This document shows, one piece after another, positions 4,688 to 38,541 of a DNA stretch of 42,734 bases (its first letter is position 1; each line of letters begins with the position of its first letter). The stretch covers positions 1 through 42,734 of the forward strand of contig JBMFOB010000011.1 of the NCBI GenBank assembly GCA_049969855.1, written 5' to 3'. Made by a program: the position numbers and the translations under genes. This DNA comes from Candidatus Bathyarchaeia archaeon (GTDB taxonomy: Archaea; Thermoproteota; Bathyarchaeia; Bathyarchaeales; Bathycorpusculaceae). Under the pieces are notes generated by a model that made no database searches, was not told the DNA's origin, and saw only the letters and a list, made by a program, of their open reading frames with translations.

Positions 4688-4719
4688 ACAAAAATCATAC
4701 GGAGCAAAAGCCTTGTGTA

Positions 4720-4826: not shown

Positions 4827-4925
4827 GTTTGTTAGGCTTTCTATTTATGCAGTTTAACAGCGCTTTAATAAATTTAGCTTTCTACAATAGTTTTTAAGAG
4901 TTACCAATAATATTTTGGTTGTTGA

Positions 4926-7746: not shown

Positions 7747-7815
7747 TCTGGAACCTCACATGTCCAAAATAAAGGTGGAAACTGCGTATTTAAATGGCTC
7801 GAAAATCTTTAGGGT

Positions 7816-10069: not shown

Positions 10070-10092
10070 TTTAGGGTCAACCTCTATAGTGC

Positions 10093-11607
10093 TTATGTAA
10101 CGATGTTGTACATTCCACCCAGAAAGTTCTGCGAGAGAACAAGCGAAACATAAGCCGTAAGCACAAGCATTGCCGAATACTTAAAGCCAGCAGCAAAAGT
10201 TCCCTCGTTCACTTTGCCAACAAAGAAGCCTGAAAGCCAACACTGCAATATTATGCCCGTGGAAAAGAGGTTTATTTGGTTCTGCATAACTTCCAATGGC
10301 ATGGCTGCTGCTCCTGGAAGAGATATCTGCGTTAATGCGTAAACTGTCATGGCAACCATAGTTGTTGTTAAGGCTATGAGAACGCTCCAAACGAAAGCCA
10401 AAATGACATAGGGCTTCAAAAGCGACTTCTTGTTAGCTTCAACATCCTTGTGCTTTTCACCATAATCCGTCAAAATTTCAAGCGCGGCAGCAGAACCTCC
10501 ACCAATCTTTATTGTTTCGACAAGAATTAGGAAGTTTACAAGCACGGGCCATGTTTGAATTTTCTGTTTAACATTAACGAAAATTTTCTTTAGAGAAACT
10601 CCCCACTCCATTTGGCTTCTGATGAGGTTTAGTGTTTCTGAAAATTTTCCATAACCACTGCGTTTTGTGGCGTGGATTATGCTCTTCTCAGGCGAAAGTC
10701 CAATCTTTCTGGCTTCTGTCACGTCTCTTAGGAAGCTTGGCATGAAGTTTTCTGCATCATTGTTTATTTTAGCAATCTTCATGTAAACGATGCTTGGCGG
10801 AATGGAAATGGCTAGAAGACAAGCTGTGACAACGAAGGGAAACGTGAGTGGAGTTGTGAGATATTGGAGTTGGGGCAGAAAATATAAGGCTGCTATGAAA
10901 CTTGATGTAGCGATTAATGGCAATATTGTAGCATAATAGGGTTTAATGGGTCCTATCAAATTGCTTCGTCTCTCAGCATGGGCAACAATCATGAAAACCA
11001 TAGAAATTAGCGGAGTTACAAAGAATATGAGAATGCAAACTGTTGCCGTTGAAATGCCCGGCGTTCCACTGACTTTCATTGGCTCAAAAATTGATGTGGT
11101 TGCAAAAATTATGAAGAGTATGTAAGAACATAATGTTACGATTAGCATCACTGCGTAGGCTTCCACCAAAGTGCCAAGTCTCTCAATTGAGCGGATTGCC
11201 GCTGCACTTTGAACCTCAAAAATTGAACGCAACTTACTCTTGAGATAGCTTACTATGCTTCCTCCGCTTCTGACAGAGGAAACGTATCCGAGAAGGAATT
11301 CTCTGTAATTCTTTGACTTGGTTTTTGCAGCCCTTTTATACATGACAGTTAATGGGTCATAACCCAAAACTTCCACTTGCCTAACAATTTCTTTTGCCTC
11401 TTTCTGAAAAATTGGCAATAAGTCTATGCTGCACAGTTTTTTCCAACTTTCATAAATTGTTACTCCGCTTGCAGCCAGCAATGTGAAGAGGAGGGCGGCG
11501 AAGGGCAATTCACGGTCTATTTCGCCAGTTTCTTCCTTCTTGTAAAGGCTCAGCATCCACCCGAAAATTTTCGGCGTCTTAATTGGCATTTGCAATTTTT
11601 TCACCAC
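10093..11607 (-). CDS. Type II secretion system F family / TadC-like pilus platform protein
   Basis: Two repeated cytoplasmic domains (ELPFA...AASG; MPSFLRDV..A..G) separated by TM bundles; directly downstream of the ATPase. Confidence 0.9.
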   Translation of the reverse strand: MVKKLQMPIKTPKIFGWMLSLYKKEETGEIDRELPFAALLFTLLAASGVTIYESWKKLCSIDLLPIFQKEAKEIVRQVEVLGYDPLTVMYKRAAKTKSKNYREFLLGYVSSVRSGGSIVSYLKSKLRSIFEVQSAAAIRSIERLGTLVEAYAVMLIVTLCSYILFIIFATTSIFEPMKVSGTPGISTATVCILIFFVTPLISMVFMIVAHAERRSNLIGPIKPYYATILPLIATSSFIAALYFLPQLQYLTTPLTFPFVVTACLLAISIPPSIVYMKIAKINNDAENFMPSFLRDVTEARKIGLSPEKSIIHATKRSGYGKFSETLNLIRSQMEWGVSLKKIFVNVKQKIQTWPVLVNFLILVETIKIGGGSAAALEILTDYGEKHKDVEANKKSLLKPYVILAFVWSVLIALTTTMVAMTVYALTQISLPGAAAMPLEVMQNQINLFSTGIILQCWLSGFFVGKVNEGTFAAGFKYSAMLVLTAYVSLVLSQNFLGGMYNIVT

Positions 11608-19660: not shown

Positions 19661-19909
19661 GTGTATCACCGCATGAAGATTAGCAGCGTATTCAGCATAG
19701 CCCTTCATTTAACTCGCCTTTCACTCATCCTTTTTGTTTTTTGGCTTACTTTTGGTTGGAATGTACGGAAGGCAAGAAAAGCCTTCGAAAAACAACTGAT
19801 TCGGCAAGGCATGACGAAAAAAGATGCAAAAAGACTGAGCGCCAATTATGTGAAGCTGAAAAATGATATTATGAACATTTTGAAAAGCTCATTTCTAAAG
19901 AGAGTCTGA
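19661..19909 (+). CDS. Small hypothetical membrane-anchored basic protein
   Basis: Starts 6 nt after the previous stop; N-terminal hydrophobic helix; shares a 26-aa motif with the upstream protein. Confidence 0.7.
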   Translation: MYHRMKISSVFSIALHLTRLSLILFVFWLTFGWNVRKARKAFEKQLIRQGMTKKDAKRLSANYVKLKNDIMNILKSSFLKRV

Positions 19910-20893
19910 GTAAAAATCTATGTAAATTTGTGAACAACAGAAGGATGAAAAGAAGATTTTGTTTCCTTGACTTTCAGCAAATTTTATGGCTTCCTCCGTT
20001 GGAAATGCGATGGCATTTACTCCAGCTTTCAATGCCAAAACATCAGTTTCCGTGCGGTGCTTGCCTTTTGGACGCATGCATCCAAGGACTATGGGTTTTT
20101 TTGGGAAAATGAGCCTTGCCGCTGTTATGACTCTTGCGATATCTATTGGTTTTGGCGGTTCAACTTTCTCCATTTCTGTTCCGTGAATTGGCATAAACGC
20201 TATAATGACTACGGCTGAAGGCTTGTATTTGGATATAATCTCCAAAGCATGCAATTCGCCTTTTAATTTTCCATAATGAAGCCCAACAATCACATGAGGA
20301 ACAAAAGCAATGTCAGCCTCGCTTAGGGCTTTCAAAGAATTTTCATAGTCCATAGTTGTTATGTTTAAATTGTAAATTTCCTTTATTGTTTCGTCTGAGC
20401 CGATAATGTCTATTAATGCAGCGTCAACCCCAGCCTCCTTAAGCCTCTTAGCCATAGAAAAATCAATTATGCCCGTGTGAACAAAAACTGTTAAACCCAA
20501 ATCCCTCTTAATCTTCCAAATAATGTCAACGAAATTTTCAAGAGGAACAGAACCGTTAGGCAGGCATCCACCACTTATAAGACATCCAGATGCACCTTCA
20601 CGTTTAAGCTTTGAACAGAGTGCAAAAAGTTCTTCGGGCGTTACAGCGGAATACATTGTTTCTAAAACTTTTCCACCACAATGCTTACACTTAAGTGTAC
20701 AGCCCTTGCCAGTTACAGATATTGTTGGAAAATTCGTAGGCGAAGAAGAGTAATGGCTTGTTTTGTAATACATGAAGCTTGGAGCGTAAAAATGGATTTT
20801 CCTTACTTTTGAGGATAACAGGTTAGCATCCAATAGGCTTGCAAGTTCTTTTTCGCTCATCTGCCAGACAGTTTCTGGTGAAATTTGCGCCAT
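19895..20893 (-). CDS. lipS1: Radical SAM protein, archaeal lipoyl synthase subunit LipS1
   Basis: CTLKCKHC radical SAM motif plus GCMR and C-terminal CC motifs, as recalled for Thermococcus LipS1. Confidence 0.8.
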   Translation of the reverse strand: MAQISPETVWQMSEKELASLLDANLLSSKVRKIHFYAPSFMYYKTSHYSSSPTNFPTISVTGKGCTLKCKHCGGKVLETMYSAVTPEELFALCSKLKREGASGCLISGGCLPNGSVPLENFVDIIWKIKRDLGLTVFVHTGIIDFSMAKRLKEAGVDAALIDIIGSDETIKEIYNLNITTMDYENSLKALSEADIAFVPHVIVGLHYGKLKGELHALEIISKYKPSAVVIIAFMPIHGTEMEKVEPPKPIDIARVITAARLIFPKKPIVLGCMRPKGKHRTETDVLALKAGVNAIAFPTEEAIKFAESQGNKIFFSSFCCSQIYIDFYSDSL

Positions 20894-22310: not shown

Positions 22311-23312
22311 ATGAAAAAGTCCACCATCCCAGAGAAAATTCGGGTTTCATTAGGCTCAGCCTTTGTCGTCGGACTCTTAAGTGGAAGACTTGAAGCAGCG
22401 CCAACAACTGCTTATCTTATGACGTATAGAAAGGGCAAATGCACAGCAAACTGTGGCTTTTGTCCCCAAGCAAGAGAAAGCAGCGCCAGGGGTGACATGC
22501 TTTCAAGGGTTTCTTGGCCAGTTTTTTCCACAGAAAAAGTTTTTGACGGAATAGATAAGGCTGTTAAGGATGAGAAAATAAAGCGTGTTTGTTTTCAAGC
22601 GTTAAATTATCAAGAGGTTTTCACGCATCTATTAGCACTTATAAAGGCAATTAGGCAAAAAGTCAACGTTCCCATATCAGTATCATGCCAACCTCAAAAC
22701 AGCATAAGAATAAGAGAGTTAGCTGATGCTGGAGCAGAAAGAATAGGCATACCATTAGATGTTGCCTCAGAAGAGCTTTTTGAAAAGATTAAAGGGTCTA
22801 TTGCGGGAGGACCATACAACTGGAAAACTCAATTTAAACTCTTAAGCGAAGCCGTTCACATTTTCGGAAAAGGTAAAGTCAGCACACACTTAATTGTGGG
22901 TTTGGGAGAAACTGAAAGACAAATGGTTGAAACCATCCAAAAATGCGTAGACATGGGTGTTCTGCCAGCACTTTTTGCTTTCACGCCAATTGCTGGAACA
23001 GCCTTGGAAAGCGTCCCTCAACCGCCAATTCAAAGTTATAGACGAATCCAAATTGCCAGACATTTAATATTTAATGGAATCGTTAGATGTGAGGATATGT
23101 GCTTTGATGAGGAAGGCTGCATAATTGATTTCAGTGTTGAAAAGCAAAATTTAATGTCTATTATTCAAACGGGTGCGCCTTTCCTTACATCAGGATGCCC
23201 AAACTGTAACCGTCCATACTACAACGAGAAGCCAAGCGGACCCATTTACAATTACCCAAGAAAAATAAGCGAAGAAGAATTGCATGAAATAAGAAAACAA
23301 CTGAGCTTATAA
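22311..23312 (+). CDS. lipS2: Radical SAM protein, archaeal lipoyl synthase subunit LipS2
   Basis: CTANCGFC radical SAM motif plus TSGCPNCNRP (TxGCPxC[ND]RP) motif. Confidence 0.82.
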   Translation: MKKSTIPEKIRVSLGSAFVVGLLSGRLEAAPTTAYLMTYRKGKCTANCGFCPQARESSARGDMLSRVSWPVFSTEKVFDGIDKAVKDEKIKRVCFQALNYQEVFTHLLALIKAIRQKVNVPISVSCQPQNSIRIRELADAGAERIGIPLDVASEELFEKIKGSIAGGPYNWKTQFKLLSEAVHIFGKGKVSTHLIVGLGETERQMVETIQKCVDMGVLPALFAFTPIAGTALESVPQPPIQSYRRIQIARHLIFNGIVRCEDMCFDEEGCIIDFSVEKQNLMSIIQTGAPFLTSGCPNCNRPYYNEKPSGPIYNYPRKISEEELHEIRKQLSL

Positions 23313-25666: not shown

Positions 25667-27091
25667 ATGCCTTCACTTAATTTACTTTCCAAAAAAGACA
25701 TGTACACCGTACATTTGGCAAGCTTGGATGTGCTGCAAGAAGTTGGGGTTATAGTTCCATACGAAGAAGTTCTTCGAAAACTTGACGAGGCAGGCGCTGA
25801 AGTTAACTATAAGAGTCAACATGTGCTAATTCCACAACATCTCGCAGAGGAAGCCATTCGGAAGACACCCCACAGATTCAGCGTTTACAATAGAGATTTG
25901 AAAACAAGGAAAATTTTAGGCGGAGATGAAACGCATTTTGGCACTGTAGGGTTTGCAACTAACTTTTACGATGTAACATCAAGAACCTACCGTAGGGTTA
26001 CAGTGCAAGACTTAGCAAACGCAACGAAGATTGCGGATGCGCTGGAAAATGTTGAGTTTTACATGTGTATGGGTTCTCCAATGGATGTACCACACGAGAT
26101 TGTAGATAGGTATATGTGGGCAACAGCCCTCGAAAACACAAGCAAACCCATAATTAATGAGGCTATGAGAAAGGAAGGCGCCTTAGACGCTATAGAAATG
26201 GCTTCAACCATCATTGGCGGAGTGGAAGAGCTTAGAAAAAAGCCAATAATGCTTCTCCTAATATCAATTACGAGCCCACTCACATTTGATAGGGCTACCC
26301 TCGAAGCGTTTATTGAAGCATCTAAACTTGGTATTCCAGTTTTCGTGAATTCAGGGCCTATGGCTGGAGCGACAAGCCCAGTGACTTTGGCTGGAACTTT
26401 AACCTTAAACATGGCTGAATTCATAAGCGCTCTGGTAATCCGTTACGTGGTTAACAAAGATGCCCCGCTTATAATTGGAAGCTGGGCTAGGGCTATGGAT
26501 GTAAGAGAAGCCTCAGCAGTGCTTGGAGGACCAGAATTCGCTTTGCTCCACGCGTGTGTCGCTCAGATGGCTCATTATTATGGAATTCCAAGCGCTGGTG
26601 GTGGCGTTTTGTCTGATGCTAAAACTTTAGATGCCCAGATGGGCTACGAAAAAGCTTTGACTGGTGTGCTTCCAGCCCTTGCACGTCTTAACTTAATATG
26701 TGGTATGGGTTTGATAGCGTCAGAAAACACCATGAGCCTCGAAGGACTTGTCATAGACAACGAAATTGTCAGCATGATAAAGAAAATTGCGAATGGAATC
26801 GAAATTACAGATGAAACTTTAGCATTGGACATTATAAAAAAAGTTGGGCCGAAAAGCAGTTTCATAAGAGAGCGCCACACTCTTGAACACTTTAGGAAAG
26901 AAATTTGGATACCGAAAATAACTAACAGAACATTCCCTGAAATTTGGGTTAAATCAGGCGCCAAAGATTTATGGGTTAAAGCTAAAGAAGAAGCTGATAA
27001 AATATTGAAGGAACATGAGGTTCTCCCACTATCAAAAGATGCTAAAGATAAAATTATGAAAATCGTCAAAGGAGTAAAAGGAAGGGCTTAA
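25667..27091 (+). CDS. mttB: Trimethylamine methyltransferase (MttB) superfamily protein 1, non-pyrrolysine
   Basis: ITSPL, MAGATSPVTLAG, GGPE, SDAKTLDAQMGYE, DNEI, KVGP...HT; no internal TAG. Confidence 0.9.
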   Translation: MPSLNLLSKKDMYTVHLASLDVLQEVGVIVPYEEVLRKLDEAGAEVNYKSQHVLIPQHLAEEAIRKTPHRFSVYNRDLKTRKILGGDETHFGTVGFATNFYDVTSRTYRRVTVQDLANATKIADALENVEFYMCMGSPMDVPHEIVDRYMWATALENTSKPIINEAMRKEGALDAIEMASTIIGGVEELRKKPIMLLLISITSPLTFDRATLEAFIEASKLGIPVFVNSGPMAGATSPVTLAGTLTLNMAEFISALVIRYVVNKDAPLIIGSWARAMDVREASAVLGGPEFALLHACVAQMAHYYGIPSAGGGVLSDAKTLDAQMGYEKALTGVLPALARLNLICGMGLIASENTMSLEGLVIDNEIVSMIKKIANGIEITDETLALDIIKKVGPKSSFIRERHTLEHFRKEIWIPKITNRTFPEIWVKSGAKDLWVKAKEEADKILKEHEVLPLSKDAKDKIMKIVKGVKGRA

Positions 27092-27092
27092 T

Positions 27093-27749
27093 ATGAGTGC
27101 AGAAAACGTTATAGAAAAGCTGAAACTTGCAGTTTTAGACTACAACATAGAAGAAGCAGCATCCACCGCCAAAGAAGTCATTAAAATGGGAATTGACCCC
27201 CTTAAGGCTATAGAAGAAGGCTTAGCTCAAGGTATAAGAGAAGTTGGAAACAAATTCGCAAACGGAGAAGTATTCCTTCCAGAACTAATAATGGCCGCCG
27301 AAACCATGAAGAAAGCCTTAGAAATTTTGGAGCCTGAACTGAAGAAGAAAAAGAAAGAGCGCAAGACTCTTGGAAAAGTGCTTTTAGGCACAGTGGCAGG
27401 GGACATCCACAGCATAGGAAAAACCATAGTTGCCTCCATGCTAAGTGCAAATGGATTCGAAATCTACGACATTGGAGAGGATGTACCAGCAGAAAAATTT
27501 GTAGAAAAGGTTAAGGAGCTAAAACCAGACATACTCGGACTTTCGGCACTCCTAACTACAACCTTGCCGGAGCAAAAAGTAGTCATTGAAACTTTAAAGA
27601 AAGAGGGCTTAAGAGATAAAGTTAAGGTTATCGTAGGCGGAGCTCCAACAAGCAGGGAATGGGCTAAAGAGATAGGCGCTGACGGTTATGGGGCTGATGC
27701 CACCGAAGCCGTTGAAGTAGTTAAGAAGCTTCTGGAACATTCAAAATGA
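27093..27749 (+). CDS. mttC: Methyltransferase cognate corrinoid protein 1
   Basis: B12 cap FLPELIMAA; GDIHSIGK (DxHxxG); SALLTTT; VGGAP. Confidence 0.9.
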   Translation: MSAENVIEKLKLAVLDYNIEEAASTAKEVIKMGIDPLKAIEEGLAQGIREVGNKFANGEVFLPELIMAAETMKKALEILEPELKKKKKERKTLGKVLLGTVAGDIHSIGKTIVASMLSANGFEIYDIGEDVPAEKFVEKVKELKPDILGLSALLTTTLPEQKVVIETLKKEGLRDKVKVIVGGAPTSREWAKEIGADGYGADATEAVEVVKKLLEHSK

Positions 27750-28936
27750 GTGGAAGGGTCAATATGGCTAGATTGTTAAAACTTTCAAAGCGTTCAGAGA
27801 AAATTCCAAAATCTGGAATCAGAAAAATGTTCGACCTTGCCCAAAAATACACAGACGTAATAAACTTATCCATAGGGGAACCAGATTTTGACACTCCGCC
27901 TCACATAATTGAAGCCGCTATCAAAGCTATGAAGACTGGCTATACCCATTACACTGTAAACGCTGGTTTCTCAGAATTTAGAAAAGCAGTTTCAGAAAAA
28001 CTGAGAAAAGAAAACGGCATAGACGCTGACCCAGAAGAAGAGATCATGGCGACAGCTGGGGGGATGGGAGGCCTATCACTAGCAATGTTGACTATGATAG
28101 ATCCTGGCGACGAGGTTCTGATTCCAAATCCGGGCTTCCCAAATTATGCTGCACAAGTTGTTTTGGCTGGCGGTAAACCAGTTTCTTACCCCCTTAAGGA
28201 GGAGAACAATTTTCGCGTGGATGTCAATGATATAGTTAAAAGAATAACAAAGAAAACAAAAGCCATCTTGATTAATTCGCCATCCAACCCAACAGGATCC
28301 GTGTTGAAAGAGAAGGAACTAAAAAACATAGCAGACATAGCATTAGAAAATAAGTTACTAGTTATATCTGACGAGGCGTATGAGGCTATTCTCTACGATG
28401 GAACAAAGCACATAAGCATAGCATCCCTTCCAGAAATGAAAGAGAAAACAATAAGCGTATTCACATTTTCAAAAACATATGCCATGACAGGGTGGCGCAT
28501 AGGATTTGCAGTAGCCCAAAAAGAGATAATAGAAGGAATGCTTGAGCTTCAAGAACACATATTAGTTCATCCAAGCTCCATTTCACAGATGGCTGCAATC
28601 GCAGCTTTGCGCGGCTCAAAAGATTATACCCAAATGATGCTTAAGGAGTATGCGGAGAGAAGGGAAATTATAACTAAAGAGTTAAACAACATGCCTAGAG
28701 TAACATGCTTGAAGCCGGAAGGCGCCTTCTACGTGTTTCCAAACATAAAGAAAACTGGCATGTCGTCAACCGAAATGGCGATGCACCTTCTTGAGAAAGC
28801 AAAAATAATAACAGTGCCTGGAACAGCCTTTGGGGAATATGGCGAAGGATACATAAGAATTTCATATTCGACATCGAAAGAGAAAATAAGAGAAGCCACG
28901 GATAGAATGCGTGTAGCCCTTGAAAAGTTAGCTTAA
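27746..28936 (+). CDS. PLP-dependent aminotransferase class I/II
   Basis: GEPDF, NSPSNPTG, DEAY, FSKTYAMTGWRIG, PEGAFY. Confidence 0.93.
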   Translation: MSGRVNMARLLKLSKRSEKIPKSGIRKMFDLAQKYTDVINLSIGEPDFDTPPHIIEAAIKAMKTGYTHYTVNAGFSEFRKAVSEKLRKENGIDADPEEEIMATAGGMGGLSLAMLTMIDPGDEVLIPNPGFPNYAAQVVLAGGKPVSYPLKEENNFRVDVNDIVKRITKKTKAILINSPSNPTGSVLKEKELKNIADIALENKLLVISDEAYEAILYDGTKHISIASLPEMKEKTISVFTFSKTYAMTGWRIGFAVAQKEIIEGMLELQEHILVHPSSISQMAAIAALRGSKDYTQMMLKEYAERREIITKELNNMPRVTCLKPEGAFYVFPNIKKTGMSSTEMAMHLLEKAKIITVPGTAFGEYGEGYIRISYSTSKEKIREATDRMRVALEKLA

Positions 28937-29935
28937 TAAGAATCCATATTTTATTGGGTCATCTTTTTCTAAAATGCAGTGTTGCAGACCTATTATGTAA
29001 GCTTTTGCTGAAAGCTTTGGTATTATTGCTTTGTATCCGCCAACTTTGGTTTCTCTGCAGATTTCGCCAACCATTGTTAAGTCTGGATGAACGAGGCTCT
29101 CAACTGTTAGGCGATTTCCAGCTTTAAATTCTCCCTTAGCCCACAATGTAGCTAGTTTGGCACTGACGGAAGTTCCAGCTGGGGAAACGCATATTGTGTC
29201 AGAGTAAACATTTGCGTGTCTACAATTATGCGCAGATTTTATGGGTTTGGCTGAAAACGTTACAAGTTCGATTTTGTTCAACTCTGGATTTTCTGGATGG
29301 CAGACTTTGACTTGCTTGTTTGCAGCATTAAGTATTTTCATGCCAACTCGGATTAACTCTTTCGCATTTTCAGGTTTCACTTGTATGCCAATTTCATCTG
29401 GATTAACAAATACGTAGTAGAGTCCTCCAAAAGCTATGTCTACATTAATTTCGCCGATTTCTGGAACCTTAACTTTTTTTGATTCTTGGTAGAAGGATGG
29501 GACGCCTTCGAAGGATATTTCTTGAACCTCGCCATCTTTAACCTTTGCCTCTACTTTAACCAGTCCTGCAGCAGTGTCGAGATTCACTTCGGTTATGGGT
29601 TCCTTAACTTCAACCATGCCCTGCTCGATTAACACCTTGGTCACACTGAATGTGCTGTCTCCGCAAGAGTTGAAGTAGCCACCAGTATACGGAAAGACTA
29701 CTCCATAATCTGCCTTCGGATTGGCTGGTTCAGTAATTATAGCCCCCAATATGCCTGAAAAACCTCTAGGCTGCATCATTAGGGCTTTTCTCCAACTATC
29801 AAAGTGTTCTTGGCAATACTTCGTTTTCTCCCACATGGTTTTGCCCGGAATCCGAGGAAAGCCGCTTACAACAACTTTAGTTGTTTCTCCCGAAGAGTGG
29901 GTTTCAACAACCGTAATTGTTCTTTCAACTTTCAT
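28928..29935 (-). CDS. Proline racemase family protein with atypical active site
   Basis: HSSGE, PRG, SCGD (for MCGH), DIAFGG, HPENP, CVSPAGT (for DRSPCGT), DDPIKYGF. Confidence 0.85.
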   Translation of the reverse strand: MKVERTITVVETHSSGETTKVVVSGFPRIPGKTMWEKTKYCQEHFDSWRKALMMQPRGFSGILGAIITEPANPKADYGVVFPYTGGYFNSCGDSTFSVTKVLIEQGMVEVKEPITEVNLDTAAGLVKVEAKVKDGEVQEISFEGVPSFYQESKKVKVPEIGEINVDIAFGGLYYVFVNPDEIGIQVKPENAKELIRVGMKILNAANKQVKVCHPENPELNKIELVTFSAKPIKSAHNCRHANVYSDTICVSPAGTSVSAKLATLWAKGEFKAGNRLTVESLVHPDLTMVGEICRETKVGGYKAIIPKLSAKAYIIGLQHCILEKDDPIKYGFLLS

Positions 29936-29968
29936 AACCTCACCGAAGTAGCCTAAAACTTATTTCTT

Positions 29969-29984
29969 ATATAAAATTTTATAT
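29969..29984. promoter_or_regulatory. Perfect 16-bp AT palindrome / back-to-back TATA boxes of a divergent promoter
   Basis: ATATAAAATTTTATAT, centred in the 83-nt gap between the racemase-like gene and the AOR gene. Confidence 0.6.
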
Positions 29985-30018
29985 CCAGAAACCTTCGAAA
30001 AGGATGTGTGTGATTAAA

Positions 30019-31857
30019 ATGTATGGTTGGAATGGCAAAATATTACGAGTTAACCTTTCAAGGATGGAAGCAGCAGCACAAAATTACAATTTGGATTTCG
30101 CAAAAAAATACATGGGTGGAAGAGGTTTTGCAATAAAAATTCTATGGGATGAACTAAAGCCTGGAACCGAACCGTTAGGTCCAGAAAACAAACTGGTTAT
30201 AGCTGCAGGACCATTAACAGGACTTCCAGGTCCAAGTCTTGGCAAACTTGTTATAGCATCCAAAAGTCCACTAACTGGAGGCTACGGAGACGGAAACATC
30301 GGCACAATGGCTTCAGTGCATATGCGTAAAGCTGGAGTTGACGCCTTAGTAATAGAGGGAAAAGCCCAAAAACCAGTTTATCTTTACGTGGAAGAGGAGA
30401 AAGGCTACATTTTAAGCGCCGACGGCATATGGGGCAAAACAACCTTCGAAGCGGAAAAAGAACTCAAAGAAATTCATGGAAAAGACGTGGGAATACTTGC
30501 GATTGGTCCAGGCGGCGAGAATATGGTTAGATACGCCACAGTTATTTCACAGGAGGGAAGGGCTGGCGGAAGACCTGGAATGGGTGCAGTTATGGGTTCT
30601 AAAAAACTTAAGGCTGTTGTATTTAAGGGAACTAAGGAAATACCTTTAGCAGACCCTGAAGGCTATAAGAAGCTTGTAAGCGATGCTTATGCAGACATTA
30701 AATCTAGGGATTATTATGGCTTCTGGATTAGGCAGGGTACAATGGCAACTATAGACTGGGCTAACGAAAATAGCGTTTTACCCACCTACAACTTTAAGGA
30801 GGGAATTTTTGAATTCGGCAACATTATTAACGGTTACGCAATGGAAGCAGCGAAGATTAACCGCAGAGGATGCCCCTACTGCAACATGGCATGTGGAAAC
30901 GTGGTTCTTGACAGTGAAGGAAGAGAATCCGAACTTGACTACGAGAATGTCGCCATGCTTGGCTCAAACATTGGACTTGGACATCTAGGGAAAGTTTCCG
31001 TGCTAAATAGGATGGCAGACGAACTTGGCATAGACACAATATCTTTAGGCAACACAATAGCCTTCGCCATGGAAGCCACAGAGAAGGGACTACTCAAAGA
31101 CGGAATAGAATGGGGAAACTTCGAAAAGATAAAAACGCTAATCCAAGACATTGCATACCGCAAAGGAGAAATCGGAGACTTATTGGCAGAAGGCGTCATG
31201 AGAGTAAGCCAAAAACTCGGCGGAAACTCCCAAAACTGGGCAATACACGTTAAAGGACTTGAAGCTTCAGCCTACGATTGCCACACTGTTCCAGGAATGG
31301 CCCTAGCTTTCGCAACATCCTCTATAGGCGCCCACCACAAGGAAGCATGGGTTATATCATGGGAAATAAAAACCGATAGAGCCGGATATACGGAAGCCAA
31401 AGTGGACAAAGTCATAGAATTTCAACGCATAAGGGGAGGAATGTTTGAATCTCTAGTGGCATGTAGACTTCCATGGATAGAATTGGGCTTCGACCTTGAA
31501 TGGTATCCAAGACTGTTAAAAGCAGCCACTGGAATAGAAATTCCACTATACGAAATGCTTTACATGTTAGCTGACAGAATATACGCCCTAATAAGAGCCT
31601 TCTGGATGCGCGAACACGGCAAAGAATGGAGCCGCTTAATGGATTATCCGCCAGCACGATGGTTCACAGAACCAATAACCAAAGGACCACAAAAGGGCAC
31701 AGCCCTTGACAAAACAAAATTTGACACACTATTGGATATGTATTATGTCAAACGCGGATGGGACAAAAGAGGGATACCAACGCAAACTATGCTGGAAAAA
31801 CTTGGATTAAAAGACGTGGCAGAGCAGCTTTCAAGAAGCATAGCGTTGACTCCGTGA
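30019..31857 (+). CDS. aor: Tungsten-containing aldehyde:ferredoxin oxidoreductase family protein
   Basis: [60 protein letters not shown]. Start placed at MYGW. Confidence 0.92.
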
Positions 31858-31934
31858 ATATTCCTCAAAAATTAACAAATCAACCATTTTATTTTTTAAC
31901 TAATTTTTATGTAAAAATGATGAGTCGGACAAGG

Positions 31935-32840
31935 TCATTTGAACATTTTAAATAATGGGTGATCTTTCGTTAGCGGTCTTGTTCTAAATTCTTGCATTAC
32001 AGAATAAGCAACGTAAGCATCAGCTAACCCACAGTAAAAGTATGCGTAGGTTGCGTTCTCAACAGGTCCATATAAAACGAAGTTGGCTCCAACAGTTATC
32101 GGAAAAATGTTGGCTACGCTGCTTGCAAGCAAATATTCTGTTCTATCAAGCTTGCGTCTATCATTCCACCTTTCAACTGCATTATGCGTTCCAGCCCCCG
32201 CAGGCAACCCATACTTTTCCTTAACCAAGTATATGGCTCTACTAACAGGTCCAGGATCTGGCAAGTCAAGAACTGTTGTGTCTACCAGAATGTTTTCTAT
32301 GCCTGCTTTCTGGGCTATGGCTAAAAGCTCATCGAGGACTTGTAATCTTCCAGAAATTGTGGGGTTTTTGGTGTTAAGTGTCAAAAGTATTGCGGATTTA
32401 ATTTTAGCCTCTTTAATCGCTAAGATTTCCTCCTCTTTAACATGCGGCGTTATAGAATTATAAATCACCCTTTGAGATGCGCCTATTTCCATAGCATGTT
32501 TTGCCCCAGCAATTCTCACTTCAGCTGTTGCTCCATCTACGGCAAAGGGTCCCTTTATTGCGTCTGCCACAAAGTCTATGAATTTTCCGAAAGCCTCAGG
32601 CCATGAACAGCAAACATCAACTATACTTGGATTCCCAGTTTTTTCCGATATTTCATGTTCCTTCTTTAGCAGTTCCTCAGCTTTTTCTTTATCAAACTCG
32701 CCTTTTTTCTCATCCCTTACTATTTTATGCTTATGATAGAATATGCTTCCAATCATTGCCGTGGGAAGCTGACCCGGTTGTCCTCCAACTTTTACACCCG
32801 CAATATCGAAAATTTTCTGTTCCTTCTCAAACTTGAACAT
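31935..32840 (-). CDS. mtrH: Stand-alone MtrH-like methyl-corrinoid:pterin methyltransferase
   Basis: MFKFEKEQKIFDIAGVKVGGQPG..PT, GSIFY, YNSI, GAGTHN, LYGPVENA, HPL; no other mtr subunit genes nearby. Confidence 0.88.
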   Translation of the reverse strand: MFKFEKEQKIFDIAGVKVGGQPGQLPTAMIGSIFYHKHKIVRDEKKGEFDKEKAEELLKKEHEISEKTGNPSIVDVCCSWPEAFGKFIDFVADAIKGPFAVDGATAEVRIAGAKHAMEIGASQRVIYNSITPHVKEEEILAIKEAKIKSAILLTLNTKNPTISGRLQVLDELLAIAQKAGIENILVDTTVLDLPDPGPVSRAIYLVKEKYGLPAGAGTHNAVERWNDRRKLDRTEYLLASSVANIFPITVGANFVLYGPVENATYAYFYCGLADAYVAYSVMQEFRTRPLTKDHPLFKMFK

Positions 32841-32842
32841 TC

Positions 32843-34735
32843 CTAAGCACTCCTTAGAACATTCATTAACGATGAAAATTTATTTAAATCTTGATGTGGA
32901 ATTAACGTTGCCTTCAAAAATTCCTCGTTGAAATTCGGATCTGCAGCTAACTCTAAGTAGCGCACTTTTTTTGATATTTTATCAGCCTTTTTTCTGGCAT
33001 CTTCAGAAATTAGAGCCATTTTGGCGCCTACTATGGCAGCATTGCCTATAAATTCAACTTTCTCTACTGGAACATCTGGTATTAAGCCAATAATCCTTGC
33101 ATTTTCAGGGTTTATGTAGTTTCCAAAGGCTCCTGCAATAAAGACTTTGTTTATGTCCTTCTCTTTCAGTTTCTTCCTCCTCATCAGAATGGAACATCCC
33201 GTGTATATGGCTGCTTTTGCAAGTTGTATTTCCCTAATGTCCTTTTGTGTTACTGTAATTTCCTCTCCTGTTTTTGTTTCATGTCCCCAAGCAATAACGA
33301 ATTCCACTTCACCGTTGCGTTCTCTTAACTTTCGAGTTTTTATATTATGATTAATTTTTCCTCTGGAATCTATTATTTTATGCTTGAACATTTCCGCAAT
33401 TATGTCAATCATGGCTGATCCGCATAGTCCAGCAGGTTTTTCATTTCCTACCGTTTCGTATTTAACCTCAAAATTTGAGTTCATTTTGACCTTCTCTATT
33501 GCGCCAGTTACAGCTTTCATTCCATGCTTAATATGGAAGCCTTCAAATGCTGGACCGGAAGCGCATGAGCATGAAAGCATATCTTTTGAACTGCCAAGAA
33601 AAATTTCCGTGTTTGTTCCTATGTCAATTAACAGAGAAACATCCTCTGAATCGCATATTCCAGATGCTAAAACATCTGCAACAGCATCAGCTCCAACAAA
33701 TCCAGCAATAACTGGTAAAACTGTTATGATTCCAGAAGGATTTATGTTGACGCTTAATTCGCAAGCTTTAACATTTATCTGCTTTTTTATGGCTGGCGTA
33801 AAAGGCGACAAAGCCATGTATTTTGGCTGAATCCCAAGAAACAAGTGATGCATGGCAGTGTTGCCCACAACCACGACTTCGTATATTTTGTTTGAATCTA
33901 TTTTCCTTCTTCCACATATCGCATTTATAATTTTGTTTAAAGCATCCACAACGATGTTCTGCAGCGTTCTTAAATTTTCAGAATTTGCCGTTGCAAAAGT
34001 TATTCTTGTTATTATATCTTCTCCGTAGGCAAGTTGTGGGTTCTCTAAGGATTCTACATCTAAAGTTTCGCCAGTCGCCAAATTCACCAAGTAACCAACA
34101 ATCTTTGAGGTTCCTATATCTATGGCTAAACCGAAAAATTCCTTTGTTGTATCTCCAGGTTCCACAGAGATTATTTTGCGTCCACCCCAAATGGTTATGG
34201 TTGTCTTGAAATTTGAATGACGAAGAATGCTTGGAAGCCTCTTTAGAACGTCATAATCTATCTCCACATGATTAAACTTGATTATCTGCGACAGTTCATC
34301 AATAAGCCTTTCATAGTCTGGTCTTATATCATGCAGTGTGGGTTTTTGAAGGGCAACGTAAATTTTTTTCACGGTTGGTTTTGGTTCCAAAAATCTTTCT
34401 ATTCCAGCGGTTTGAATTTTTCGAAATTCCAAACTACTTTCAGGCGGAATTATAATCACAGTATCCTTCAACACTTTAGTTTGACAAGCCAACCTATAAC
34501 CATGGTCAATTTCAGATTTAGACAAATGTTTCTTTTCAGGCTCCGTTAGTTCACTTAAGTCTTCTGGTTTTTTAATGATTATTCTGCATTTTCCACACAA
34601 ACCTTTTCCGCCACATTCGGATCTGAGACTAATGCCCGCATCTTTAACTGCTTGGAAAACCGTGATTCCTTTGGGCACTTGAACTTTTCTTGCTTCAGGC
34701 TCAAATAGAATTTTTACATTTTCACGTAAAGCCAT
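32843..34735 (-). CDS. Reductive activator of corrinoid enzymes (RACE; ASKHA ATPase with N-terminal 2Fe-2S ferredoxin)
   Basis: CGGKGLCGKC...RLAC, DIGTS, GNTAMHH, FVGAD, DIGTNTE, SCASGPAFEG, QLAKAAI, AGAFG. Confidence 0.92.
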   Translation of the reverse strand: MALRENVKILFEPEARKVQVPKGITVFQAVKDAGISLRSECGGKGLCGKCRIIIKKPEDLSELTEPEKKHLSKSEIDHGYRLACQTKVLKDTVIIIPPESSLEFRKIQTAGIERFLEPKPTVKKIYVALQKPTLHDIRPDYERLIDELSQIIKFNHVEIDYDVLKRLPSILRHSNFKTTITIWGGRKIISVEPGDTTKEFFGLAIDIGTSKIVGYLVNLATGETLDVESLENPQLAYGEDIITRITFATANSENLRTLQNIVVDALNKIINAICGRRKIDSNKIYEVVVVGNTAMHHLFLGIQPKYMALSPFTPAIKKQINVKACELSVNINPSGIITVLPVIAGFVGADAVADVLASGICDSEDVSLLIDIGTNTEIFLGSSKDMLSCSCASGPAFEGFHIKHGMKAVTGAIEKVKMNSNFEVKYETVGNEKPAGLCGSAMIDIIAEMFKHKIIDSRGKINHNIKTRKLRERNGEVEFVIAWGHETKTGEEITVTQKDIREIQLAKAAIYTGCSILMRRKKLKEKDINKVFIAGAFGNYINPENARIIGLIPDVPVEKVEFIGNAAIVGAKMALISEDARKKADKISKKVRYLELAADPNFNEEFLKATLIPHQDLNKFSSLMNVLRSA

Positions 34736-34775
34736 TTTTATTGCCTATCCAGAAACAATTACGGCTATGAGACTT

Positions 34776-36212
34776 TTAGTGTTTCTTCTTAATGTCCTCC
34801 ATGACCCGTTCAAGATCTTCTTGAACATCTTTTGGTAGGGGTTCAGGCTCATGTTCTTTTAATTTTCTCTCAACGATTTCGTGTGCTCGTTTAACAATAT
34901 CCTTTTTTCCAGAATCTTTCCAAACATTCCATTCCTTTCTGTCAATAACTTCAGATGGTATAAATTGTTCTTTTCTAATCCATTCCAAAGTGTGCTTCTC
35001 CGCTAAATATACTCCGCCAGGTCCCACCTTTCTTATTAAGTCAAAAGCAAGCGTTTCATCTTCAACCCTTACACCCTTCGCAAGTCTTAATGCAATGCCG
35101 CAAATTTCATTGTCGACAACAAGTTTTTCTAAGCTTTGACAGTTTTCAAAATCTAACATTCCAGGTCCCGATATCACGTTTATTCCTGCAAGCGCTCCTA
35201 AAACTATGCCAATCCCAGATTCAAAACCACACTGGGCATCAATAATTTTTGCATCGCTAAGCCCAATATACATGTGGGTTGGCAATCCATAACTTTTTGC
35301 AATTTGAGTATACGCGCAACCAAGCATCATAGCTTCTATCGCCCCAAGACAAGCCGTGGCATATCTCTGGTCTAAGACTGTTGGCGAACCACCATAAATC
35401 ACCGGCGCACCAGGGTTTGTCAACTGAACCATTACTAAGCCGCTTAAAAATTCAGCGTTATGTTGAACGAGGGATCCAGCTATTGTTGCAGGACCCGTTG
35501 CGCCTAATTGAGGTACTGGAATAATCTCAGCGGGCAGGCGGAACTTGGCGCAGTCAATTAGATTTTGAGCGTCAAGTTCACTCCATTTCAATGGAGCAGA
35601 GGGGCAAACGTCAAATATTGCCATGGGTTTTCTGGCTAACTCTTTTTCTCCGCCAACGACGACTTCAAGCATCCGCTTCATATCGTAAAGCCCATCAACG
35701 CTAAAAGCGCCTGTGATTATCGTTTTTGAAGAATTTTTCAGGACTATGTAAAGGCGGTATCGGTCAACAATTGTTTGTGGAACGTCAGAGACAACTAAAG
35801 CTGTGCTTTGAGCATGGATATAATCAAGAGCGTCAGTCAATCTGACCAGTTCTGCTAAATCTTTTGAAACTGGTTTTCTAATCTCGTTTTTTTCGTAATC
35901 CAAAATGTATAGCGCTGATGAGCCTGGATTGAAAGTAACTTTATCTCCTTCCAGAGTTCTGTCATGCTTTTTGTTTCGACCGTAAAGCTTGATTGTTGAT
36001 GGAGCCTTAGACAAAGCTTCTTTAACCAAATATTGTGGGATGTAGGCGAGTTTCTTGTCAAAGTCAACTTCGGCTCCACCGTCAGCAAGCAATTTCAACG
36101 CAGCTTCACTGTATATTTTTACGCCAACCTCTTCCAAAATTCTCATGGAAGCAAGATGGATGGATTCAATTTGCTCCTCAGACAATGGCTTAAACTGTGA
36201 AGATTTGGACAT
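34776..36212 (-). CDS. mttB: MttB superfamily methyltransferase 2, non-pyrrolysine
   Basis: PSAPL, GATGPATIAG, SDAKIIDAQCGFE, GPGMLDFE, DNEI, KVGPGG. Confidence 0.9.
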   Translation of the reverse strand: MSKSSQFKPLSEEQIESIHLASMRILEEVGVKIYSEAALKLLADGGAEVDFDKKLAYIPQYLVKEALSKAPSTIKLYGRNKKHDRTLEGDKVTFNPGSSALYILDYEKNEIRKPVSKDLAELVRLTDALDYIHAQSTALVVSDVPQTIVDRYRLYIVLKNSSKTIITGAFSVDGLYDMKRMLEVVVGGEKELARKPMAIFDVCPSAPLKWSELDAQNLIDCAKFRLPAEIIPVPQLGATGPATIAGSLVQHNAEFLSGLVMVQLTNPGAPVIYGGSPTVLDQRYATACLGAIEAMMLGCAYTQIAKSYGLPTHMYIGLSDAKIIDAQCGFESGIGIVLGALAGINVISGPGMLDFENCQSLEKLVVDNEICGIALRLAKGVRVEDETLAFDLIRKVGPGGVYLAEKHTLEWIRKEQFIPSEVIDRKEWNVWKDSGKKDIVKRAHEIVERKLKEHEPEPLPKDVQEDLERVMEDIKKKH

Positions 36213-36262
36213 AAAGTTCCTCCTTTTGAACTTCTTAACAAGCGAAGTTTTTAATAAGCTTT

Positions 36263-37723
36263 TTAGTGCTCAACTAAATCTTTTTTCGCTATTTCAATTA
36301 TGTTTTTAATCTCTTTTTGAACTTCAACTTCTAAGGGTTGGACTTGGTGTCTTTGAAGGATTATTTTGACTTTTTCCCTCGCCATCTTCACTATGTCTTT
36401 TGCGCCGTCCCTAAGCCATGTTTCAAAGGATCGCCTATCGGTTAATTGTGGAATGAAATGTTCCTTTCGTATATGCTCAAGAGTGTGCCTCTCACCTAGG
36501 AAATTACCGCCAGGACCAACCTTACGAATAACGTTAAGAGCTAATGTATCATTGCTAACTTCTATTCCTTGAGCAATTCGAAAAATTATTCTCACAATCT
36601 CGGCGTCAATTAAAATCTCTTCAAACGCAAGGGTTGTACAGTCATCCAGCAACCCTATCCCAGCAATCATGCCGCAGCCAGATAAAACTGGCGGAAAACC
36701 ACTTGTAAACTTCTCATAACAGGCTTGTGCTCCAGGAGCCTTTGCCGTCGAAACAAAACCCCCTACAATAGAAGGCATACCATAATACCTTGCCAGTTCA
36801 CCAGCAGCAGCACCAGTCAGTCCATGTTCAGGACCGCCTCCGGCGCGTTTTAAAGTTCTCATATCAAAAGCCGCAATGCCTGCACCATAAACAACCGATG
36901 CGCCAGGGCATGCAAGTTGAGTGATTACAAGACAACCCAGCACTTCCGCGTTATTCACAACCATGGAACCCGCCAGCGTCGCAGGACCCGTTGCTCCAAG
37001 TTGGGGCATTCCAAAAAACATCACTGGAACGCCAGCTTTTGAAAATTCTAAGGCGGCTTCCATACTGTTTCCATCCATCTGGAGAGGCGCACTTGTACAA
37101 TGCAGTGAAGAAATTATTGGTTTTTTCCTTAGTTTCTTTTCGCCCCCGACAACCACTGAAGCCATTTCTATCTGATATCTGGCTTCTTTAGACGACATGG
37201 TGGTTTCGAAGGTTACATGCTTCTCCGTGTTAGACAAAGATGCCTCAAGATCGTGGAGGTGCCGAACATGTGCTGGATAATCCTGTGCGCTCACCAAGGG
37301 CCAATATATGTCCACAACGTCAATGGCGTCTGAGATTATGGCTGATTTGGCTATATCCTCTTTTGTTGAGGCTCTTCGTTCTCCAGTTTCCATGTCAATT
37401 GTTTGGGTTCCGTTTCCATCAGTTGTTATATAGACGTGCCTTTGATCCAGGTTCACGTCATATTTTGGGTTTCGAGCGCACAGGGTTATGCTCTTTCGAT
37501 TCTTTCTTAAGGCTTCTTCAACAAGGTAGGAAGGCATTAACGCTACTTGGTTTTTATAGTCAACTTCGCAGTCTCCTTCTTCTAAAATTGTGAGACATTT
37601 TTTGCTGTTTATTTTGAAGCCTGTTGTTGCCAAAACTTCAAGGGTGGTTTGGTGAATTGCCTCTAAATCTTCTTTTGATAACACGGAGAAGGTTATTCTT
37701 TGGTTTTCCCTAGAGAAGCCCAT
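36263..37723 (-). CDS. mttB: MttB superfamily methyltransferase 3, non-pyrrolysine
   Basis: ARNPKYD, TSAPL, GATGPATLAG, GGPE, AQACYEK, GIGLLD, KVGPGGNFLGERHT. Confidence 0.9.
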   Translation of the reverse strand: MGFSRENQRITFSVLSKEDLEAIHQTTLEVLATTGFKINSKKCLTILEEGDCEVDYKNQVALMPSYLVEEALRKNRKSITLCARNPKYDVNLDQRHVYITTDGNGTQTIDMETGERRASTKEDIAKSAIISDAIDVVDIYWPLVSAQDYPAHVRHLHDLEASLSNTEKHVTFETTMSSKEARYQIEMASVVVGGEKKLRKKPIISSLHCTSAPLQMDGNSMEAALEFSKAGVPVMFFGMPQLGATGPATLAGSMVVNNAEVLGCLVITQLACPGASVVYGAGIAAFDMRTLKRAGGGPEHGLTGAAAGELARYYGMPSIVGGFVSTAKAPGAQACYEKFTSGFPPVLSGCGMIAGIGLLDDCTTLAFEEILIDAEIVRIIFRIAQGIEVSNDTLALNVIRKVGPGGNFLGERHTLEHIRKEHFIPQLTDRRSFETWLRDGAKDIVKMAREKVKIILQRHQVQPLEVEVQKEIKNIIEIAKKDLVEH

Positions 37724-37766
37724 TTTAAGAGTTTACCCCAGTCCACTGCGTATAACAATTTTTGAC

Positions 37767-38417
37767 TTAGGAAGCTTCAACTAGTTTCTTTGCAACTTCA
37801 ACAGCTTCTATTGCGTCTCCGCCATGTCCATCAGCGCCTATTTCTTCAGCCCATTTCTTGGATGTTGGCGCTCCGCCGATTATCACTTTAACTTTTTCTC
37901 TTAATCCTTCACGTTTAAGCGCATCTATGACATCTGCCATTTTAGCCATTGTTGTTGTCATTAGGGCAGACATGCCGACTATTTCTGGTTTAACCTCCTT
38001 AATTTTCTCGACGAATTTTTCGGTTGGTACATCAACGCCTATGTCGATCACTTCAAAACCTGCCACCATGAGTAGAGTGCCCACAATGTTTTTTCCAATG
38101 TCATGGATATCTCCTTCCACAGTGCCTATAAGAACTTTGCCCAAAGTTTTCTTCTCTCTAGTGCTTTTCAGTATTGCTGGTTCTAACACCTTCAAAGCTT
38201 GCTTCATGGCTTCTGCTGCTATTACAAGCTCTGTCAAAAAAGCTTCCCCTGCACCGAAACGTTCCCCAACAATTCTTACTCCCTTAGCTAAACCGCCTTC
38301 AATAGCTTCAACAGGGTCCACGCCTTTTTGAAGGGCTTCTTCAGCAGCCTTCACAGCTGCTTCTGGATCATAATTTAGGACGGCGTTCGTTAGTTTGTTT
38401 AAAACTTCTTCTTTCAT
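37767..38417 (-). CDS. mttC: Methyltransferase cognate corrinoid protein 2
   Basis: FLTELVIAA, GTVEGDIHDIGKN, SALMTTT, IGGAP. Start moved to MKEEV, with GGGTGA RBS upstream. Confidence 0.9.
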   Translation of the reverse strand: MKEEVLNKLTNAVLNYDPEAAVKAAEEALQKGVDPVEAIEGGLAKGVRIVGERFGAGEAFLTELVIAAEAMKQALKVLEPAILKSTREKKTLGKVLIGTVEGDIHDIGKNIVGTLLMVAGFEVIDIGVDVPTEKFVEKIKEVKPEIVGMSALMTTTMAKMADVIDALKREGLREKVKVIIGGAPTSKKWAEEIGADGHGGDAIEAVEVAKKLVEAS

Positions 38418-38541
38418 TAATTCACCCGCATTTTCCAAACTACTTGGATTATATATAAATTTATTGAGAACATTTAGGTATCAATTTTCATAAAAAAATA
38501 AATATGTTAAGGCATAGTAATAGTTCTGAAGTGCAACAACA

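Follow-up and report, generated by a model that had tools for sequence, protein, structure and literature searches.

The proline-racemase-superfamily (PRS) gene described here lies in a 42,734-nucleotide window, the whole stretch of DNA that was analysed, from the genome of a Candidatus Bathyarchaeia archaeon. It is flanked by a class I/II aminotransferase gene and an aldehyde:ferredoxin oxidoreductase (AOR) gene, inside an island of methyltransferase genes (Table 1). Its product, P0001, belongs to a clade in which the catalytic Cys/Cys pair of the proline racemases has become Cys/Ala and both nitrogen-binding residues are changed. By its sequences this clade is a fourth active-site type of the superfamily, and its enzymes probably do not racemise proline but convert a proline-like amino acid to a keto or imino acid. 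The superfamily is a textbook case of function prediction from active-site pairs and genome context, and Bathyarchaeia rank with the most abundant uncultured archaea in sediments and hot springs. On translation, the minus-strand gene runs from an ATG at 29935-29933 to a stop codon at 28930-28928; the plus-strand frame over the same interval is riddled with stops and is not open. A Shine-Dalgarno-like GGTGAGG can be read 4 nt before the ATG. P0001 is the single PF05544 family member in the source genome.

Table 1. Coordinates of the PRS gene, its motifs and its neighbours in the window, and of two PRS-like variants at other loci (locus coordinates)
Feature	Position	Strand	Remarks
PRS gene (protein P0001)	28928..29935	minus	335 aa; F59/C91/D93/C249/A253 clade
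QPRGF, in place of EPRGH (residues 55-59)	29759..29773	minus	HMMER alignment, translation; Phe59 clade-specific
SCGD, in place of MCGH (residues 90-93)	29657..29668	minus	Cys91 kept; N-binding His to Asp93
CVSPAGT, in place of DRSPCGT (residues 249-255)	29171..29191	minus	Asp to Cys249, Arg to Val250, second catalytic Cys to Ala253
Intergenic region of the divergent PRS and AOR genes	29936..30003		68 bp; A/T-rich palindromic TATA-like stretch (read from the sequence)
AOR	30004..31857	plus	Pfam AFOR_N/AFOR_C; divergent neighbour
Class I/II aminotransferase	27746..28936	plus	last gene of the MttB-corrinoid protein-aminotransferase operon
MttB-family methyltransferase	25667..27091	plus	Pfam, NCBIfam
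Corrinoid protein of this MttB	27093..27749	plus	Pfam, NCBIfam
MtrH/MtgA-like methyltransferase, RACo activase, two MttB paralogues, second corrinoid protein	31935..38438	minus	Pfam, NCBIfam
Asp-to-Ser PRS variant, L067 (= L088)	10001-11011		
Asp-to-Ser PRS variant, L089			
Asp-to-Ser PRS variant, L073 (= L090)	10001-11029		
Asp-to-Ser PRS variant, L071	6740-7759		
MCGG...ACGTG family, L084 (G094:C5)	7382-8350		
MCGG...ACGTG family, L082 (G106:C92)	4188-5129	minus	
MCGG...ACGTG family, L083 (G137:C60)	978-1982	minus	

Pfam PF05544 matches P0001 over its full length (E 1.4e-95, 320.6 bits; 1-324 of the 325 profile positions). In HMMER comparisons with solved structures, the three motifs of P0001 fall opposite EPRGH, MCGH and DRSPTGT in 6r76, and the third also falls opposite DRSPCGT in 7pb3 and 6j7c. 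Since this alignment and the translation agree on the positions, the SCGD, CVSPAGT and QPRGF substitutions named in the original prediction are real and correctly numbered; two further motif changes are Met90 to Ser and Arg250 to Val. Cys91 and the carboxylate-binding loop (S251-P252-A253-G254-T255) align with the canonical motifs, and C91, S251, P252, G254 and T255 are conserved in both the clade and the canonical set. Contact of the ligand with the MCGH His and the DRSPCGT Asp, a premise of the original prediction, is backed by portions of two papers: residues of MCGH and DRSPCGTG hydrogen-bond the carboxyl group or the pyrrolidine nitrogen (PMC4364671), and His132 and Asp296 are assisting residues, with Phe102 as the specificity residue (PMC1964878).

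P0001 shares the PF05544 fold, the first-motif Cys and the SP-x-GT loop with the proline racemases (Acetoanaerobium sticklandii 7PB3, Trypanosoma cruzi 1W61 and the archaeal TlProR-type 6J7C). It differs from them, and from the residue set of EC 5.1.1.4, in that Ala253 replaces the second Cys of the Cys/Cys pair (MCGH plus DRSPCGT), Asp93 and Cys249 replace the nitrogen-site His and Asp, and Leu63 replaces the site-1 aromatic. Nor is the Cys/Thr pair of the trans-3-hydroxy-L-proline (T3LHyp) dehydratases present. The 4-hydroxyproline 2-epimerases have two proton-transfer residues (Cys/Cys or Ser/Cys), a donor/acceptor on both faces, whereas the Cys/Ala clade has Ala253 on one face; their Ser/Cys form B9K4G4 shows, according to parts of PMC4113996, that the catalytic pair is variable in the superfamily. 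P0001 falls under every NCBIfam equivalog cut-off of the superfamily, that is, those for proline racemase (NF010576, 333 vs 556 bits), T3LHyp dehydratase (NF045511, 269.5 vs 540; NF047722, 238.2 vs 550) and 4-hydroxyproline 2-epimerase (NF010578, 238.8 vs 376; NF052296, 147 vs 450; NF010577, 117 vs 442), the last being the lowest-scoring of the three functions. An ESM Atlas search with P0001 returned generic 'proline racemase family' clusters only.

A homologue search of 5.8 billion proteins gave 273 matches, and the best 120 of the 273, all with Bathyarchaeia source labels, were used. Both CGD and C-x-SPAGT are kept in 117 of these best 120 (47-95% identity); the remaining three are two fragments with the second motif only and P0091, which has CGD but Gly/Gly. 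When 19 members with identities as low as 42% are aligned, 53 columns show no variation; these include F59, C91, G92, D93, S94, C249, S251, P252, A253, G254 and T255. Compared with 120 canonical sequences, the clade has eleven positions fixed differently (F59, L63, D93, S94, I140, L172, H240, N242, C249, A253 and A310). In a collection of species-representative genomes, 112 stretches encode a relative, 80 loci were kept, and 74 of them carry the signature (63 as F/C/D/C/A, 3 as S/C/D/C/A and 8 cut by contig ends). The labels of these 74 loci are Bathyarchaeia/Bathyarchaeota or 'uncultured archaeon' except for L066, L074 and L079, which are labelled as bacterial metagenome-assembled genomes (MAGs). 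Because the neighbours of L066 and L079 are the same archaeal genes as at the other clade loci, mis-binning is likely for these two.

The ratio of nonsynonymous to synonymous substitution rates (dN/dS) of the PRS gene against the seven closest loci (L002-L008) is 0.04-0.07, and 0.06 against L002. The rewiring is thus not confined to the source genome, and decay, which the original prediction had named as its refutation, is ruled out by the clade-wide signature together with purifying selection. The pattern is invariant across a clade and far beyond chance. As that prediction had argued, the active site is rewired, and chemistry other than two-base racemisation is most likely. The type is also widespread: in a survey of 201 Bathyarchaeia genomes of at least 80% completeness, in which 60 PF05544 matches were typed, one Bathyarchaeia family (f18) has PF05544 in 48 of its 50 sampled genomes, 46 of them typed as the clade, one canonical (G036) and one unreadable (G116). 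In the source organism's own family, a real PF05544 match was found only in the source genome (G000) among 30 genomes.

The place of the clade in the superfamily was studied with the best 150 representatives of 50%-identity clusters and a FastTree phylogeny. The commonest patterns at positions 59/91/93/249/253 in this set are H/C/H/D/C (60), H/C/H/D/T (15), H/C/H/D/G (7) and H/C/D/G/S (6). The Cys/Ala sequences form one monophyletic clade (support 0.94), and the H/C/D/G/S clade (MCGDS...GRTPSGTG) is sister to it (joint support 0.94); the nearest branches hold Cys/Cys enzymes. P0127 (H/C/D/G/C), just outside both clades, has Asp93 and Gly249 and still retains Cys253, which suggests that the nitrogen-site swap preceded the loss of the second Cys. 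Parts of PMC4141209 and PMC4364671 describe Cys-Cys (racemase, epimerase), Cys-Thr (dehydratase) and Ser-Cys/Ser-Thr (function unknown) types in the superfamily. In full-text literature searches a Cys/Ala type did not turn up, nor did any connection between the proline racemase family and MttB or Bathyarchaeia. In the Cys/Ala type the nitrogen-binding carboxylate appears to have changed lobes, and a Cys that is invariant has been gained.

The sister clade shares with the Cys/Ala clade the His-to-Asp swap, the lost Asp and the lost second Cys; it differs in having Gly249 and Ser253 rather than Cys249 and Ala253, in keeping His59 and in being bacterial (Alphaproteobacteria, Chloroflexota, Actinomycetota and Desulfobacterales). 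Typing gave H/C/D/G/S at 22 of 27 of its loci. Its neighbours include Dpp-type ATP-binding cassette (ABC) transporters, GntR regulators, flavin adenine dinucleotide (FAD) oxidoreductases, a short-chain dehydrogenase/reductase and aldehyde dehydrogenase.

The best solved match of P0001 is the T. litoralis dehydratase 6r76/6r77 (E 1.9e-90), of which 6R77 is tlT3LHypD (PMC9309405, in part). Fold and length are alike, the first Cys is kept, and the second is lost, as befits a one-base design. The relation is nevertheless not one of descent: a split with support 0.958 places the clade, its sister and P0127 with Cys/Cys sequences, apart from every Cys/Thr representative, including P0149, whose best solved match is 6r76 (the tree holds no solved-structure sequence, and P0149 stands in it for 6r76). 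Origin from within the Cys/Thr dehydratases is thereby ruled out, and since all Cys/Thr representatives are excluded, the one-cysteine state, as read from this tree, arose independently of the known dehydratases in spite of the best-scoring structure. That P0001 is nonetheless an ordinary T3LHyp dehydratase seems quite unlikely to us. Such an assignment can draw, besides the structural match, on the view that the Thr is not thought to be the catalytic base (PMC4113996, in part) and on an LhpI-like reductase gene directly downstream in relatives. It has to contend with the tree, with scores far under both NCBIfam dehydratase cut-offs, with the eleven differently fixed positions, and with the His and Asp kept in all 15 Cys/Thr representatives examined, where P0001 has His to Asp, Asp to Cys, Arg to Val, His59 to Phe, and Ala in place of Thr.

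For the gene neighbourhoods, open reading frames were called in the 80 loci and clustered, and the clusters were named by Pfam and NCBIfam. At least 1.5 kb is available upstream in 57 and downstream in 60 of the 74 clade loci, and counts within 5 kb refer to the 64 in which the flank measures 3 kb or more. On the PRS strand, a class I/II aminotransferase gene follows downstream in 34/60 loci and an ornithine cyclodeaminase (OCD)/mu-crystallin gene in 13/60. An LhpI-like OCD gene directly follows the PRS gene in L003-L006 (L004: 11009-11988), and the gap between the two is 34-91 bp in L003, L004, L024 and L072. The OCD-like protein of L004, where the PRS protein is 91% identical to P0001, matches 6t3e, deposited as a delta1-pyrroline-2-carboxylate (Pyr2C) reductase, with E 2.4e-89; for alanine dehydrogenase the value is 9.6e-62. 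The genes run PRS, OCD and a convergent aminotransferase in L004; PRS, OCD and 2-oxoacid:ferredoxin oxidoreductase (OFOR) in L024; and PRS, aminotransferase, OCD and OFOR alpha-beta-gamma in L033. The window and L002 have lost the OCD gene, and their PRS gene abuts the aminotransferase gene; clustering with an LhpI-type Pyr2C reductase is thus seen in relatives but not in the source genome.

In 54/64 loci, one or more enzymes of 2-oxo or 2-imino acids are encoded within 5 kb. Where the 10-kb flanks are complete (23 loci), the inner 5 kb contain such a gene in 23/23 and the outer 5-10 kb in 6/23. A D-2-hydroxyacid dehydrogenase is near the PRS gene in nine loci, a thiamine diphosphate (ThDP) enzyme is directly downstream in three, Liv-type amino-acid ABC transporters are nearby in L005 and L053, and AOR is kept beside the gene in all of the seven closest loci. 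Methyltransferase parts are found within 5 kb in 5/64 clade loci. The clade-wide partners are enzymes of 2-oxo and 2-imino acids (aminotransferase, LhpI-like reductase, OFOR and AOR), not demethylases. Genes for lactam-opening enzymes recur near both sister clades: hydantoinase/oxoprolinase A and B genes downstream of PRS, OCD and OFOR (L024, 15611-19413; L033, 19701-20999), and PxpA-like plus carboxyltransferase/biotin carboxylase genes beside the Rhizobium sister-clade gene (L080, 11757-15899). A creatininase-family gene adjoins the PRS gene in five loci.

We propose, with confidence and doubt about evenly balanced, that P0001 is a cofactor-free one-base lyase of the dehydratase type that yields a cyclic ketimine or 2-oxo acid. 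Cys91, the Cys that in this family acts on the L-isomer, would take the alpha-proton from a proline-like cyclic amino acid. Because Ala253 replaces the proton donor on the opposite face, the carbanion would not be reprotonated to the D-isomer; it would instead expel a substituent of the beta-carbon, and the enamine would tautomerise to a cyclic 2-imino acid of the Pyr2C type, in equilibrium with the open 2-oxo-omega-amino acid. The product could be used by the neighbours, namely the LhpI-like ketimine reductase, the aminotransferase, OFOR, the ThDP enzyme, the 2-hydroxyacid dehydrogenase or RidA, while AOR would handle an aldehyde side product. Asp93 would be the sole counter-charge for the ring nitrogen, and Cys249 would occupy the spot where the canonical Asp held it. 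Phe59, Leu63, Leu172, Ser/Ala90, Cys249 and Ala253 would together make a roomier and less polar nitrogen pocket, which speaks for a substrate different from simple 3-hydroxyproline. In those lineages where the gene lies within a methyltransferase island, the source genome included, the ring could be N-methylated or otherwise bulkier.

Several parallels speak for such a reaction. According to sections of PMC4113996, t3HypD needs one general base, the conjugate acid of which probably aids departure of the 3-OH. In archaea, the T3LHyp dehydratase gene clusters with a gene for an OCD-like Pyr2C reductase, which is also an N-methyl-L-alanine dehydrogenase (parts of PMC4141209), much as an OCD-like gene directly follows the PRS gene in relatives of P0001. 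The sister clade, also without the second Cys, adjoins comparable genes: OFOR is directly downstream in Chloroflexota, and the Rhizobium gene adjoins a RidA/YjgF enamine-imine deaminase homologue as well as the PxpA-like genes. In the human dehydratase, the exchange T273C is reported to convert the enzyme to an epimerase. The clade and its bacterial sister would then mark a step in the breakdown of amino acids or compatible solutes that ends in 2-oxo acids.

Several points weigh against the proposed lyase. The OCD-type reductase, the best-supported partner of the clade, is missing from the source genome (93% completeness), in which neither OCD (PF02423) nor Ldh_2 (PF02615), ProC (PF14748) or ProA (TIGR00407) found a match. 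As all four are unmatched, the genome has no recognisable proline route, and a peptide-dependent lifestyle of the organism fits. A winged helix-turn-helix (wHTH) regulator on the other strand separates the PRS gene from the aminotransferase gene in 13 loci. The neighbourhood counts overstate independence, because the loci are related to each other, and aminotransferases and OFORs are common genes. The analogy with the dehydratases is, by the tree, one of convergence and not of descent, as the clade sits among Cys/Cys enzymes, and the known dehydratases keep His and Asp. The invariant Cys249 has no necessary role in a one-base model, and no beta-substituted substrate can be named.

The invariance of Cys249 could be explained if it were a relocated acid/base that replaces Cys253 in a two-base racemase or epimerase, maybe for a six-membered or N-substituted ring. 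In the sister clade Gly249 goes with Ser253, so a thiol at 249 coincides with the loss of a hydroxyl or thiol at 253, and the CGD form with Cys253 (P0127) suggests that the nitrogen-site swap is older than the loss of the second Cys. The geometry would be less favourable. PMC4364671 has the motif residues within hydrogen-bonding distance of the carboxyl group or the pyrrolidine nitrogen; the canonical Asp would lie beside that nitrogen, in the ring plane. If so, a thiol at this position would not be on the C-alpha face that lies opposite Cys91, and Cys249 could hardly stand in for Cys253 there. A racemase product, moreover, has no need of 2-oxo or 2-imino acid enzymes nearby. Taken together, we judge a relocated base very unlikely.

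A cofactor-free isomerase of cyclic imino acids, interconverting delta1-pyrroline-5-carboxylate (P5C) and Pyr2C with Cys91 at C-alpha and with Cys249 and Asp93 at the imine nitrogen and C5, would account for the change of both nitrogen ligands, as expected for an sp2 imine rather than an ammonium, and would make a second C-alpha base dispensable. The ketimine reductase and aminotransferase neighbours act on Pyr2C or its open form, and ProC, ProA and OCD are unmatched in the source genome. We know of no imino acid isomerase in the proline racemase family. This scheme is built on pure inference, its pathway logic is incomplete in a source genome that has no reductase, and we hold it to be highly improbable. 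Taken more broadly, the chance is slight that the Cys91, Cys249 and Asp93 constellation carries out a reaction new to the fold, whether a 1,3-proton shift between P5C and Pyr2C or an elimination from N-methylated hydroxyproline. If it does, neither oxygen nor flavin dehydrogenases would be needed to channel cyclic amino acids or compatible-solute betaines into the 2-oxoacid:ferredoxin fermentation of Bathyarchaeia. As a small, soluble protein that needs no cofactor, P0001 lends itself to direct expression and a substrate screen.

In the window, the aminotransferase gene is convergent with the PRS gene, and their 3' ends overlap by 9 bp (28928-28936). Beyond AOR the genes follow in the order MtrH-like, RACo, MttB, MttB and corrinoid protein. 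The genome (1.28 Mb) has only three MttB genes, all of which belong to the methyltransferase island (25667-38438) and lie no more than 8 kb from the PRS gene; accidental placement of the PRS gene inside the island is therefore unlikely. The three paralogues differ little in their distance from the solved MttB and MtgB structures, and an NCBIfam scan of them reached no betaine-specific model. Their reading frames are free of internal stop codons, which makes them MttB proteins of the non-pyrrolysine type.

The original prediction had also suggested an N-substituted substrate that would fit the neighbouring demethylases. This part of it fared less well: the flanking by all three MttB genes speaks for it in the source genome, but the link does not extend to the clade at large. 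With an MttB threshold of E <= 1e-20, an MttB match was obtained in 22 of the 47 sampled clade-bearing genomes but not in the remaining 25, and in 50 of the 154 genomes outside this set; in family f18 MttB is present in 22/50 genomes, compared with OCD in 50/50. An obligate MttB link as a clade-wide rule is ruled out by these 25/47 genomes and the 5/64 loci, and because of the former the function of the clade is not MttB-dependent in general. Lineage-specific recruitment of the enzyme to a methylated substrate is possible.

Besides the window, the association is seen in L002-L004, L053 and L072. In L053, MttB, corrinoid protein and PRS genes lie on one strand with a 40-bp gap; in L072, MtrH, corrinoid protein, PRS and OCD-like genes lie on one strand. 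These two repeats of the corrinoid-PRS arrangement, with the island of the source genome, its corrinoid proteins, MtrH-like protein and RACo, speak for an enzyme specialised for N-methylated prolines (N-methylproline, proline betaine or hydroxyproline betaines) used or made by an MttB/corrinoid system. The lost Asp/His pair would make room for the N-methyl group, and epimerisation or elimination would come before or after demethylation. The clade-specific changes would indeed give a more hydrophobic, aromatic pocket, and other MttB-adjacent PRS-like lineages are also without the N-binding Asp (Asp to Ser in four loci; MCGG/ACGTG in three genomes). The scarcity of methyltransferase parts near the gene and of MttB in the genomes (in f18, 22/50 against 48/50 for PF05544) tells against such specialisation, as does the chemistry: Ala253 leaves no obvious second base for epimerisation, and N-methylproline has no beta leaving group. 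In genome G157, furthermore, a PRS with canonical EPRGH and GCGH sits right behind a corrinoid protein and MttB, and an MttB link therefore does not require the rewiring. On balance we regard the specialisation as unlikely. Were it right, an analogue would be HpbD, the proline betaine/4-hydroxyproline betaine 2-epimerase, which inverts C-alpha of N-methylated prolines; it differs in belonging to the enolase superfamily, with an unrelated fold, and in being metal-dependent and part of an aerobic pathway with Rieske-type demethylation (PMC3950512, in part).

The G157 locus (L087, G157:C103, 3267-6225) has corrinoid protein, MttB and PRS genes on one strand and is an independent PRS-MttB pairing; the N-terminal half of its PRS is canonical, and the contig ends within the gene. 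The Asp-to-Ser variant is bacterial (PRGN / MCGH / S-x-S-R-SPCGT) and keeps Cys/Cys. Its hosts are Desulfobacterales and a Thermotogae MAG, MttB is always adjacent, and the one Asp-retaining relative (L091) has no MttB in its flank. A BCCT betaine transporter occurs in L073/L090 and an OpuAC one in L071, and a glycyl-radical enzyme with its activase is found in the three Desulfobacterales loci. These variant loci look like a hydroxyproline-betaine route. The MCGG...ACGTG proteins, of 313-334 aa, form a divergent two-cysteine PRS/DapF-like family, with a weak PF05544 match over the N-terminal part only. Their neighbours in the three Bathyarchaeia genomes include MttB, corrinoid protein, a pterin-binding methyltransferase, Ldh_2, an arginase-family protein and creatininase.

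Several MttB matches of family f18 (G041:C62, G089:C50, G083:C31, G182:C31, G194:C28 and G164:C7) have exactly one in-frame TAG and could be pyrrolysine-type trimethylamine methyltransferases. One genome with a clade-type copy has a second PRS copy of canonical type (L109, G046:C20:56465-57430); this match has two in-frame TGA codons and may be a pseudogene. Also in the window are an amino-acid permease gene, peptidase genes (M20, M48 and M55) and a LipS1/LipS2 pair (the two-protein archaeal lipoyl synthase, above the NCBIfam cut-off) at 19895-20893 and 22311-23312, between which lie the M55 D-aminopeptidase gene and a small wHTH gene.

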